Source: Minisyncoccota bacterium (lineage in GTDB: Bacteria > Patescibacteriota > Minisyncoccia > Phycocordibacterales > UBA918). From it: DNA of 64,000 nt. Shown here in pieces: positions 61,464-64,000 of the stretch. The position numbers were made by a program, and so were the translations under genes. The first letter of the stretch is position 1; each line of letters starts with the position of its first letter. The DNA lies in NCBI GenBank assembly GCA_041389005.1, contig JAWKSR010000004.1, positions 7,959 through 71,958 of the forward strand. Reading direction: 5' to 3'. The notes below the pieces were generated by a model. The model did not search any database. It was given only the letters and a program-made list of their open reading frames with translations, and was not told where the DNA came from.

Positions 61464-62777
61464 ATGGAAATCAAACAAATTCGCAAGCGCGACGGCTCCA
61501 TCGTCGCTTTCGAGCTTGAGAAAATTACTAATGCTGCCGTAAAGGCACTTAAAGAAACTGGCGAGGGAACCGCTGAAGATGCAGCCGAGATCGCTCAGCG
61601 TGTTTACGATAAGATTGTAGCAATGTGTGTGCAGGCTGGTACCGCAGAAGCAGATGATCCACAAGCTAAAAAGTGTGTTGACGGATATCCAGCGGTGGAG
61701 GAAATCCAAGACTTGGTGGAAGCGGCACTGATGGAGATGGACTACTTTGAGACTGCTAAGGCATACATCATTTATCGAGCGGAACGTAAGCGTTTGCGGG
61801 AACGAGACATTTTTCATAAACGAACCAACCTCAAACCTTACGAGTACCCAGAACTCGCAGAATACGTTGATGCTATTCGACACTCGTATTGGGTGCACAC
61901 CGAGTTCAACTTCACCGGTGACATCAATGACTTTAAAGTGAACGTAAATGATGCTGAGCGAGCTGCAATCAAAAAGACAATGCTGGCGATTGCGCAAATA
62001 GAGGTGGCGGTAAAAACATTCTGGGGCAACCTCTACTCAAAAATGCCCAAACCAGAAATTGGTGCAGTTGGCATGACTTTTGCTGAGAGTGAAGTCCGCC
62101 ACATGGACGCTTACTCACATCTGTTGGAGATTTTGGGACTCAATGAAGACTTCAAGACGCTTGACCAAGAACCAGTTATCCAAAAGCGCGTCCAGTACCT
62201 TGAGAAGGTGATTGCGCTTAGCAAGCAAGGTGAAAACCGTGAGTACTCTCACGCTGTACTCCTTTTCTCACTCTTTGTGGAGCACGTGTCACTCTTTTCT
62301 CAGTTCCTTATTATGATGAGTTTCAACAAGCATAAGAACTTGTTTAAAGGACTCAGTAATGCGGTAGAGGCGACTTCTAAAGAAGAACAGATTCACGGAC
62401 TCTTTGGTACTGACCTCATCAACATCATTAAGAAAGAACACCCAGAATGGTTTGATGAAGCGCATCGCGAGACTGTTCGCACCATGTGTATTGAAGCGTA
62501 CCAGGCAGAAAGCGCTATTGTTGACTGGATCTTTGAGAACGGCGAGCTCGACTTCATGCCAGCCGCTGAAGTGAAGGAGTTTATTAAGAGTCGCCTTAAT
62601 AAATCCCTCAAGGGTATCGGTATGGACCCCGTCTTCAATCTAGACGAAGCCTTGGTAGAAAAGACCGATTGGTTTGATGATGAGGTGATTGCCACCAAAC
62701 ACGTCGACTTCTTCGATAAACGCTCTATCAACTACAACAAGCGCCAACAGAGTGTGACCAGTGACGACTTGTTTTAA
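61464..62777 (+). CDS. nrdB: ribonucleotide reductase small (radical-generating) subunit NrdB with an N-terminal ATP-cone domain
   Basis: Residues 1 to about 100: IRKRDGSIVAFELEKI..VEEIQDLVEAAL..AKAYIIYRAERKRLRE (ATP-cone). The rest is a ferritin-like R2 with AESEVRHMDAY (ExxH plus Tyr at H+4) and SKEEQIHGLF (ExxH). Confidence 0.85.
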   Translation: MEIKQIRKRDGSIVAFELEKITNAAVKALKETGEGTAEDAAEIAQRVYDKIVAMCVQAGTAEADDPQAKKCVDGYPAVEEIQDLVEAALMEMDYFETAKAYIIYRAERKRLRERDIFHKRTNLKPYEYPELAEYVDAIRHSYWVHTEFNFTGDINDFKVNVNDAERAAIKKTMLAIAQIEVAVKTFWGNLYSKMPKPEIGAVGMTFAESEVRHMDAYSHLLEILGLNEDFKTLDQEPVIQKRVQYLEKVIALSKQGENREYSHAVLLFSLFVEHVSLFSQFLIMMSFNKHKNLFKGLSNAVEATSKEEQIHGLFGTDLINIIKKEHPEWFDEAHRETVRTMCIEAYQAESAIVDWIFENGELDFMPAAEVKEFIKSRLNKSLKGIGMDPVFNLDEALVEKTDWFDDEVIATKHVDFFDKRSINYNKRQQSVTSDDLF

Positions 62778-62813
62778 AGTACCCCTTATTCATTCAGTGA
62801 TTAATGACCTCTT

Positions 62814-64000
62814 ATGATTGACCGAACACAACCATGGTATTGGATAAACGATAATACCCGTGCCTTTATGGCTCGCGGCTACTTAGTTGGCGACCAAACA
62901 GCTGAAGAGCGCGTTCGTTACATTGCTGAGCATGCTGAAAAAGTTCTCAAAAAAGAGGGTTTTGCAAAAAAGTTTGAAGAGTACATGAGTAAAGGCTGGA
63001 TTAGTCTGGCTACACCAGTCTGGGCAAACTTTGGACTCGAGCGAGGATTGCCTATTAGTTGTTTCGGCTCGTATCTAGCTGATGACATGGGAAGTATTCT
63101 CCATACTCAAGCTGAGGTAGGCATGATGAGTAAATACGGTGGTGGGTGTTCTGGCTACTTTGGTGCCCTACGTGAGCGTGGTTCAGAAATTACCAACAAC
63201 GGTAGCTCACACGGACCAGTCCACTTCATGCAACTCTTTGAGAAACTTTTAGATGTAGTGAGTCAAGGAGCGACCAGGCGTGGGGTGTTTGCAGCGTATC
63301 TGCCAGTCGAGCATCCTGATATTCTCGAATTTCTTGATATTGGTACGGAAGGAAATCCAATTCAGAAGATCAATCACGCTGTTACTGTTGGTGATGAGTG
63401 GCTGCAAGCCATGGCTGATGGCGATGAGGAAAAGCGTGCTATTTGGGCAAAGGTAATTCAGCGCCGCGGTGAAATTGGCTACCCATACATTCTCTTCCGA
63501 GACAATGCCAACAAAGGCAAGCCAGATGTCTACAAGGACAAAGACCTTAAGATCCATGCCAGTAATGTATGTAGTGAGATCATGTTACCAAGTAAAGAAG
63601 ATTGGTCATTTGTGTGTTGCCTTTCCTCAATCAATGTTCTTCACTACGATGAATGGAAAGATACTGACTTGGTCGAGACCATGGTTTATTTCTTAGACGC
63701 GGTAATGAGTGAGTTTATTAGCAAACTCGAAGCGCTTCGAGATTCAGATCGACAAGATAAGCAGTACGCTTTTCGTTTTATGGAGCGAGCGTACAACTTC
63801 GCTAAAGCTAACCGTGCTCTTGGACTTGGAGTGCTTGGCTACCACTCTTTGTTGCAGTCAAAGGGTCTGGCATTTGACAGCATGGAAGCTGGCAAGCTCA
63901 ATGTAGAAATATTTAAAATGATGAACGAGCGTGCCTATGCTGCTTCCACGGAGATGGCAAAAGAGTATGGTGAGCCAGAAGTGTTGGAGGGATACGGACG
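62814..64000 (+). CDS. nrdA: ribonucleotide reductase large subunit NrdA (class I), no N-terminal ATP-cone; 3' end outside the window
   Basis: Frame open from ATG 62814 to the window end (my translation). MIDRTQPWYWINDNTRAFMARGYL.., LPISCFG, VSQGATRRG, HASNVCSEIMLP, SFVCCLSSIN. Not in the ORF track because no stop is reached. Confidence 0.85.
   Translation, partial: MIDRTQPWYWINDNTRAFMARGYLVGDQTAEERVRYIAEHAEKVLKKEGFAKKFEEYMSKGWISLATPVWANFGLERGLPISCFGSYLADDMGSILHTQAEVGMMSKYGGGCSGYFGALRERGSEITNNGSSHGPVHFMQLFEKLLDVVSQGATRRGVFAAYLPVEHPDILEFLDIGTEGNPIQKINHAVTVGDEWLQAMADGDEEKRAIWAKVIQRRGEIGYPYILFRDNANKGKPDVYKDKDLKIHASNVCSEIMLPSKEDWSFVCCLSSINVLHYDEWKDTDLVETMVYFLDAVMSEFISKLEALRDSDRQDKQYAFRFMERAYNFAKANRALGLGVLGYHSLLQSKGLAFDSMEAGKLNVEIFKMMNERAYAASTEMAKEYGEPEVLEGYG

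Follow-up and report, generated by a model that had tools for sequence, protein, structure and literature searches.

An ATP-cone fused to NrdB in a probable class Id ribonucleotide reductase operon of Paceibacteria

A 64,000-nucleotide (nt) stretch of contig JAWKSR010000004.1 from a Minisyncoccota bacterium (the window) ends in two adjacent genes, nrdB and nrdA, which encode the radical-generating and the catalytic subunit of a class I ribonucleotide reductase (RNR). NrdB carries an ATP-cone at its N-terminus and NrdA carries none. The evidence assembled below makes it highly probable that this locus is an operon for an aerobic class Id (NrdAi/NrdBi) RNR in a Paceibacteria genome of the candidate phyla radiation (CPR), and that the ATP-cone on NrdB is functional. 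The domains, the conservation of individual residues, the partner subunit, the lineage and the distribution of the fusion are direct observations; the mode of action is argued from the closest studied enzyme, NrdB of Leeuwenhoekiella blandensis.

NrdB joins an ATP-cone to an R2 core and is followed by a cone-less NrdA

An earlier note on this DNA, made from the letters alone, had described an N-terminal ATP-cone joined to a ferritin-like R2 domain in NrdB, a NrdA without a cone and a beta-before-alpha gene order. Each of these features was recovered, and the peptide motifs that the note cited are all present in the translations. The ATP-cone of NrdB matches Pfam family PF03477 far above the cut-off of 25.8 bits (E 4e-18) and is followed by a strong match of the core to PF00268. 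The nrdA gene begins 36 nt past the nrdB stop codon, at an ATG at position 62814 instead of 62815 as first assigned, and continues for 395 codons until the window ends. The visible part of NrdA starts with the all-alpha domain (Ribonuc_red_lgN, residues 18–78) and proceeds to the barrel domain, leaving no space for an N-terminal cone.

Database proteins complete the picture. P0001 is 100% identical to the NrdB of the window, and P0287, a full-length NrdA of 563 residues, is 100% identical across all 395 visible residues. P0287 lies on an NCBI MAG contig of 81,407 bp labelled Candidatus Paceibacterota, and the contig recorded for P0001 has an equal length. The note had allowed for a cone in the part of NrdA beyond the window; P0287 contains PF02867 (Ribonuc_red_lgC) and PF00317 (Ribonuc_red_lgN) alone, and no ATP-cone was found in NrdA of 17 close relatives from genome loci (0/17). 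P0287 reaches 775.3 bits against the NCBIfam model TIGR02510 ('NrdE-prime'; cut-off 602, aligned over 13–560 of 560 positions). The fragment in the window scores 524.5, aligned over positions 13–390 of 560, and falls under the cut-off because it is truncated. The NrdA active-site residues C83, N251, C253, E255 and C268/C269 are invariant among the close relatives aligned, and the nearest solved structures, retrieved with a relative from genome locus L003 as the query, are the class Id alpha subunits 6DQX and 6DQW.

The NrdB core has the residues of a class Id enzyme

The best match of NrdB in the PDB is 5OLK, the dATP-loaded NrdB of L. blandensis, which aligns over the full length with E 1e-175. 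The next matches are a cone-deleted form of the same protein and other class Id beta subunits, the best hits spanning E 1e-175 to 1e-87. With profile hits above curated thresholds and such a match to a solved structure, chance similarity is not an issue. In a global alignment, NrdB is 63% identical to its L. blandensis counterpart overall, 44% in the cone and 68% in the core, which bears out the close kinship to a flavobacterial enzyme that the architecture had suggested. The C-terminal tails (residues 409–437 in the window, 399–427 in L. blandensis) are 79% identical. In class I RNRs, this tail serves in NrdA binding and radical transfer, and it presumably does so here.

We compared these similarities with an AlphaFold2 (AF2) model of NrdB. 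The cone was predicted with a predicted local distance difference test (pLDDT) score of 80–93, and the C-terminal tail with a score below 50. Foldseek returned 5OLK as the top match of the model and placed its core on 6SF5 at a root-mean-square deviation (rmsd) of 2.2 Å.

The metal ligands and second-sphere residues of L. blandensis NrdB have been described (PMC6754362). Its ligands E170, E200, H203, E263, E298 and H301 map to E180, E210, H213, E273, E308 and H311 of the window NrdB. In an alignment of 82 sequences that differ at 11–37% of positions overall, all six are invariant (82/82), as are the class Id Lys (K184), the Trp (W187) and the Tyr/Thr pair (Y217/T304). K184 and W187 fall in a conserved stretch, EVAVKTFW. 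In L. blandensis, K174 in the helix-B loop faces the metal site, W177 is invariant in the subclass and Thr294 keeps Tyr207 off the metal (PMC6754362). The oxidant of class Id enzymes is a Mn2(IV,III) centre, and the Tyr does not carry the radical (PMC6754362). The residues of the 'ExxH...Y radical motif' that had been read from the sequence are thus present, Y217 included, but tyrosyl-radical chemistry is probably the wrong interpretation of them: by analogy, this NrdB would be expected to use a Mn2(IV,III) centre activated by superoxide as its oxidant, in place of a tyrosyl radical.

The ATP-cone is predicted to control activity through NrdB tetramers

Cone residues K8, R9, D83, E86, M90, K99, I102, R105 and R108 are kept in 80–82 of the 82 aligned sequences. 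K8, R9, R105 and R108 correspond to the basic residues with which two-nucleotide cones grip the triphosphates. The cone–cone interface of the L. blandensis tetramer has been defined residue by residue (PMC5794259); in 5OLK it comprises D73, M80, K89, I92, I93 and R95, which correspond to D83, M90, K99, I102, I103 and R105 in the window NrdB. One position departs from the published list: the Asp76 of the paper is a Glu in the 5OLK sequence, and likewise in the window NrdB (E86).

The conservation of the metal ligands, of the class Id Lys and Trp and of the tetramer-interface residues makes it most likely that this NrdB works like that of L. blandensis. On this analogy, an ATP-bound NrdB dimer would combine with the minimal, cone-less NrdA into an active α2β2 complex. 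Upon dATP build-up, two dATP molecules would bind to each cone, and the cones of two NrdB dimers would pair via helices α3 and α4 to give a β4 tetramer. The tetramer would bind NrdA only non-productively, and dNTP synthesis would stop. The corresponding non-productive complexes of L. blandensis are α2β4 or α4β4 (PMC5794259). For the RNR of the window, we infer nucleotide binding, tetramerization, inhibition and the metal cofactor alike from the studied relative.

Several points weigh against so direct a transfer. The AF2 model of the core has only moderate confidence (mean pLDDT 70.7), the cone is much less similar than the core to its characterized counterpart in L. blandensis, and the biochemical studies are all of enzymes from outside CPR. 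The cone on NrdB of Facklamia ignava indicates that nucleotide stoichiometry can differ (PMC6187632). Finally, the cone holds a 13-residue insertion with an invariant Cys pair, which is in no studied ATP-cone.

A Cys pair in the cone and the C-terminal tail of NrdA

The 13 extra cone residues are present in all Paceibacteria-type NrdBs, that of the window included. Every one of the 73 sequences that have the full insertion contains C55 and C71, and adjacent positions vary. The insertion is absent from L. blandensis, from SR1-type loci and from all viral and representative sequences examined; it was not found in the literature searched. In the AF2 model it forms an extension of helix α2, a turn and a short helix (pLDDT 83–93), a fold that would set positions 55 and 71 roughly opposite each other.

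The partner subunit shows a second peculiarity. A C-terminal redox-active Cys pair of NrdA has been stated for all class I RNRs (PMC6187632), and the solved class Id alpha subunits terminate in CSSCE. P0287 conforms, ending in ...QELTRQKICRACEG with a CxxC tail (...QKICRACEG). Among the 116 closest full-length NrdA proteins, however, the CxxC tail is missing in 94 and kept in 22, P0287 being one of the latter. The Cys pair is lacking from the last 25 NrdA residues in 58 of 60 GTDB loci whose NrdB bears the insertion, whereas all eight partner NrdAs of insertion-less NrdBs retain C..CEA. A search in any frame for CxxC[E/D] up to 300 nt past the YYQHS motif found none in 55 of 66 loci. Loss of the tail in NrdA relatives was not found in the literature searched.

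The nearest GTDB relatives (L001–L004) had suggested that the NrdA of the window would be tail-less too, which the CxxC of P0287 rules out. Since this NrdA keeps its tail in the presence of the insertion, the gain of the Cys pair preceded the loss of the tail and may have permitted it. As it stands, the relation between insertion and tail loss is an unexplained correlation and not a mechanism; few independent events underlie it, and insertion and tail occur together in this organism.

These data bear on an alternative in which the cone is functional but unlike that of L. blandensis, with C55 and C71 providing a second input, either as a redox disulfide or as an inter-cone metal site, that gates oligomerization or takes part in the delivery of reducing equivalents. 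The strict conservation of both Cys residues amid variable neighbours would fit such an input, yet a structural role is simpler. The confidently predicted helix-turn-helix would bring the two positions face to face, but at the base of a folded loop, badly placed for a buried active site. The glutaredoxin module at the N-terminus of the F. ignava NrdBi offers a precedent for redox equipment at this place (PMC6187632). The pairing of insertion-bearing NrdBs with CxxC-less NrdAs, and of insertion-less NrdBs with CxxC-bearing ones, points in the same direction; however, it comes from very few independent evolutionary events, and the retention of CxxC in the window NrdA and in 22 of 116 close homologues argues that the Cys pair is no simple replacement for the tail. 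Overall, we consider a second input of this kind unlikely and retain dATP-driven tetramerization, as in L. blandensis, as the preferred account of the cone.

The fusion is widespread and probably of long residence in Paceibacteria

To place the locus, one genome per GTDB species was scanned. The best 80 of 221 pattern-limited stretches contain full-length proteins with 63–83% identity to the window NrdB, and almost all are labelled Paceibacteria, Kaiserbacteria, Nomurabacteria, Parcubacteria or Patescibacteria. The database NrdB identical to that of the window is labelled Candidatus Paceibacterota, which agrees with the earlier suggestion that the host belongs to a lineage very different from the flavobacteria. 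In 78 of the 80 loci nrdA follows nrdB, and the remaining two contigs stop right after nrdB; complete nrdA genes lie in stop-to-stop open reading frames (ORFs) of 527–599 residues.

The fusion occurs in at least 80 GTDB species representatives and in more than 120 clusters at 90% identity. IMG/VR contributes 563 stretches with relatives, and most of the 80 listed are full length and have the cone. When sequences were clustered at 50% identity, 246 clusters matched at E<1e-30, with about 12 cone-bearing ones among the best 150. The claim that the architecture is rare therefore fails. A 2022 paper pointed out that, in the NrdAi clade, cones on beta accompany a beta–alpha gene order (PMC9669993), and a search for literature linking RNR or the ATP-cone to Patescibacteria or CPR found nothing relevant, which is not proof that nothing has been published. 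The fusion as such is already known; its commonness in CPR is new. The earlier interpretation was right on the architecture and the unusual host, wrong on rarity and partly right on novelty.

The gene order YibE/F–MscL–nrdB–nrdA–(metalloprotease-like)–(SIMPL-like)–nusG–rplK recurs, with flanking genes shared by up to 61 loci, and a closed 0.99-Mb chromosome (CP060229.1) is among the loci with the fusion. That at least 80 species have retained the fusion, and its synteny with it, speaks for selection acting on the cone. It could still be supposed that the cone is vestigial or purely structural and exerts no control over overall activity, as degenerate cones are known from other RNRs, among them that of Pseudomonas aeruginosa and class Ib examples (PMC6572854, PMC9669993); with a Pfam score far over the cut-off and with nucleotide-contact and interface residues nearly invariant in 82 sequences, we regard this as very improbable, and a cone that regulates activity remains our reading.

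In a neighbour-joining tree of the NrdB core, a distance tree with no support values from which only the coarse picture was used, the Paceibacteria sequences group tightly in a single clade, whose neighbours are L. blandensis, the SR1-type loci, one representative cluster and phage sequences with a cone; a small number of cone-less viral NrdBs are placed inside the clade or next to it. This picture and the 68% core identity between phyla fit horizontal spread of a gene that was already fused. Horizontal transfer, which the earlier note had raised, is thus plausible as a past event, but the clade-wide synteny speaks against a recent transfer into this genome. The recurrent flanking genes suggest that the operon has long resided in the lineage, and they run counter to mis-binning. 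That the operon is foreign to this genome, either through mis-binning of a flavobacterial or phage fragment or through a very recent horizontal gain, as its high identity to a flavobacterial protein, the many phages with the fusion and a CPR-type copy on a 1.7-kb contig labelled Flavobacteriales might suggest, is scarcely credible in view of the YibE/F, MscL, nusG and rplK flanks in up to 61 loci including the complete CP060229.1, an operon G+C content (0.445–0.456) inside the range across the window (0.41–0.50; about 45% for the whole, with scattered tRNAs) and a best full-length viral identity to the window NrdB of just 59% among the matches listed from IMG/VR.

Three further observations concern relatives of NrdB. 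The contig just mentioned (L021, JALVEJ010000288.1, 1,702 bp) encodes an NrdB with 76% identity to that of the window, has both the Cys insertion and the leader RNA described below, and is probably a binning error rather than a flavobacterial copy. Six cone-less viral NrdBs from IMG/VR (L087, L088, L089, L091, L094 and L095) are 64–70% identical to the window core, and the four kept after de-duplication (L087, L089, L091 and L095) are those within or beside the Paceibacteria clade; they may come from phages of CPR hosts that took the gene without its cone or lost the cone afterwards. Many NrdBi representatives (P0122, P0125, P0127, P0130–P0134 and others) are 550–1300 residues long and match in two or three stretches that are split near residues 205–215 or 308–317, a pattern that inteins or other insertions in conserved sites of the R2 core could produce.

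A conserved structured leader precedes nrdB

A gap of 907 nt separates the terminator palindrome of MscL (60568–60613) from nrdB. Conserved blocks emerged here when 79 upstream regions were analysed by k-mers and by alignment, and a covariance model (R1) was built from 34 sequences. At a match cut of E<1e-8, R1 returned 57 matches, namely one in the window, where it is the only match, and 56 among the 80 genome loci (e.g. L029:5784-5960 and L027:3413-3599). All lie on the plus strand directly 5' of nrdB. R1 found no such leader in 80 viral nrdB loci.

The proposed fold consists of a 5' hairpin, a long-range helix around variable hairpins and a long, interrupted 3' hairpin. In the alignment, which was itself fitted to this structure, 89.3% of cells are paired versus 79.0% in shuffles, and slid partners reach 27–51%. 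Under the same caveat, compensatory changes occur in 25 of 33 pairs (200 cells), and none of 500 shuffles reaches any of these measures. The long 3' hairpin has compensatory changes in 14 of 18 pairs; several of its positions are mainly G-U, which makes sense only for an RNA of the plus strand. Searches of Rfam 15 with the leader of the window and with the compact homologues in L029 and L036 returned no family at the gathering threshold or at E<=5, and for the leader in the window the best overlap was nothing better than E 0.4. An alternative leader hairpin, GTGTGTC/GACACAC, was considered as the basis of a structural switch; it is pairable in 95% of cases but almost invariant, and a switch is not demonstrated.

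A putative sigma-70-type promoter, read by hand, lies 5' of the leader. In its −10 hexamer, the A and the final T do not vary among 36 aligned loci; the hexamer stands 7–10 nt ahead of the first RNA block. In a consensus scan for promoters and terminators this promoter stayed under the threshold, and no terminator was detected after the leader. Between leader and start codon there are about 300–350 nt in the window (317 nt), L002, L004 and L006, and 40–60 nt in most loci. The spacer of the window (61148–61463), with similar spacers in L002, L004 and L006 only, has no clear ORF or conserved block; it includes an 8-bp hairpin (gttacgat...atcgtaac) as well as ctccactcacacgag, which partly repeats the 5' leader blocks.

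Expression of E. coli nrdAB is under DnaA control. A perfect DnaA-box consensus, TTATCCACA, lies about 100 nt 5' of the leader in 34 of 79 loci. Its position is about −310 with respect to nrdB; it frequently takes the form AGTTATCCACAG and is sometimes present more than once. Tandem NrdR boxes (16 bp, acaCwAtATaTwGtgt) were sought in the window and seven loci with a crude scoring; the best candidates reached 7.5–9 of 12, at no conserved position, and none was convincing.

A leader RNA upstream of nrdB was not found in the literature searched. We propose it as a candidate cis-regulator of the RNR operon. It is about 170–320 nt long and could be a new element of riboswitch type through which Paceibacteria adjust RNR expression, for instance in response to a nucleotide or a cofactor. 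The Cys pair of the cone, the other lineage-specific addition, could be redox- or metal-active, and the CxxC shuttle of NrdA may thereby be dispensable. That at least one of the two additions is a new regulatory device atop the ATP-cone switch is a tentative suggestion, and the odds seem to us somewhat against it.

Feature coordinates and neighbouring genes

Table 1. Features of the nrdB–nrdA locus, in coordinates of the window.
Feature	Position	Strand	Evidence or remark
DnaA-box-like 9-mer CTATCCACA, one mismatch to TTATCCACA	60673..60681	+	Upstream of the putative nrd promoter; presumptive function
Putative sigma-70-type promoter, TTGCAA, 16-nt spacer, TAATAT	60794..60821	+	Read by hand
Structured leader RNA 5' of nrdB	60825..61147	+	Covariance model R1, 49.7 bits, E 4e-12
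nrdB, ATP-cone::NrdBi (probable class Id radical-generating subunit), 437 residues	61464..62777	+	ORF, Pfam, 5OLK match, AF2, Foldseek
ATP-cone domain, residues 5–110	61476..61793	+	Pfam PF03477, 66.1 bits
Cone insertion between helices α2 and α3, residues 55–72, C55...C71, MCVQAGTAEADDPQAKKCVDGYP	61626..61679	+	Alignment
Ferritin-like R2 core, residues 120–393	61821..62642	+	Pfam PF00268, 206 bits
Disordered C-terminal tail of NrdB, about residues 410–437 (...SVTSDDLF)	62691..62774	+	pLDDT <50
nrdA (NrdAi, probable class Id catalytic subunit), truncated after 395 of 563 codons where the window stops	62814..64000	+	Pfam, TIGR02510

Two genes 5' of nrdB, adjoining MscL, stands a conserved gene for a YibE/F-family membrane protein (58063–59178, plus strand) whose product ends in a run of His (..GHHHH); homologues are present in 44 loci. 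It would be speculative to link this protein to the supply of metal (Mn) for the RNR. The 3' end of the gene is part of a perfect 50-nt direct repeat (59133–59182 and 60079–60128, 946 nt apart), and the two copies bracket an ORF of 215 residues (59342–59989) with no Pfam match. In relatives, MscL comes almost directly after YibE/F, so that the arrangement in the window resembles an insertion of about 0.95 kb that left the target end duplicated.

Implications

The architecture by itself has been explained since 2018, and its detection here is at the level of annotation. What changes is its standing: an ATP-cone::NrdB design held to be rare and mostly flavobacterial is the standard class I RNR of much of Paceibacteria and is abundant in phages. 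This bears on the control of dNTP supply in bacteria that are ultra-small and often depend on a host, and a class Id RNR implies that Paceibacteria meet oxygen or superoxide. More testable and less expected are a class I alpha family that is mostly tail-less, a Cys pair in an allosteric domain and an unclassified leader RNA. Loss of the tail in most relatives contradicts the textbook statement that all class I RNRs have a CxxC tail.

Comparison with known systems

Cis-regulatory RNAs on RNR operons include adenosylcobalamin (AdoCbl) and 2'-deoxyguanosine (2'-dG) riboswitches. Like these, the leader described here is a structured 5' element directly ahead of an RNR operon; unlike these, it matches no Rfam 15 model, and its architecture and conserved blocks differ.

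The cone itself resembles that of P. aeruginosa NrdA (5IM3), a two-dATP cone that forms tetramers through α3/α4 pairing and gives a weak direct sequence match to NrdB residues 6–112 (E 1e-4). In P. aeruginosa, in contrast, it is the catalytic subunit that carries the cone, and the inactive state is α4.

The core has the NrdBi fold of the class Id enzymes of Flavobacterium johnsoniae, Actinobacillus ureae and Aggregatibacter (6CWO-Q, 8DQ3-5, 6DQW/6DQX), with an rmsd of about 2.2–2.8 Å and 45–56% identity. The minimal NrdAi alpha subunit with a C-terminal CxxC is shared as well. The beta subunits of these three enzymes have no ATP-cone and thus no known control of overall activity.

Closer in architecture is the Grx::ATP-cone::NrdBi of F. 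ignava, which belongs to the same NrdBi subclass and has the cone on NrdB (PMC6187632). There, the cone is a dATP off-switch that acts via beta tetramers, and the cofactor is Mn(III)/Mn(IV) (PMC6187632). Unlike the F. ignava protein, the NrdB of the window has no glutaredoxin domain, and its sole extra redox-capable feature is the Cys pair of the cone.

The closest counterpart is the NrdBi/NrdAi pair of L. blandensis (5OLK, 6SF4/6SF5; PMC5794259, PMC6754362), which has a class II RNR besides; a further RNR was stated in 2018 for every species with a cone on NrdB. The two systems differ in host, Bacteroidota in one case and Patescibacteria in the other, in the cone, which is merely 44% identical and in the window carries the 13-residue Cys-pair insertion, and in the conserved structured leader RNA that precedes the operon of the window. 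They agree in the cone on NrdB, in a short, cone-less NrdA and in nrdB being the first gene. The metal ligands, the helix-B Lys, the Trp, the Tyr/Thr pair and the α3/α4 interface residues are identical, and the similarity extends to the C-terminal tail.

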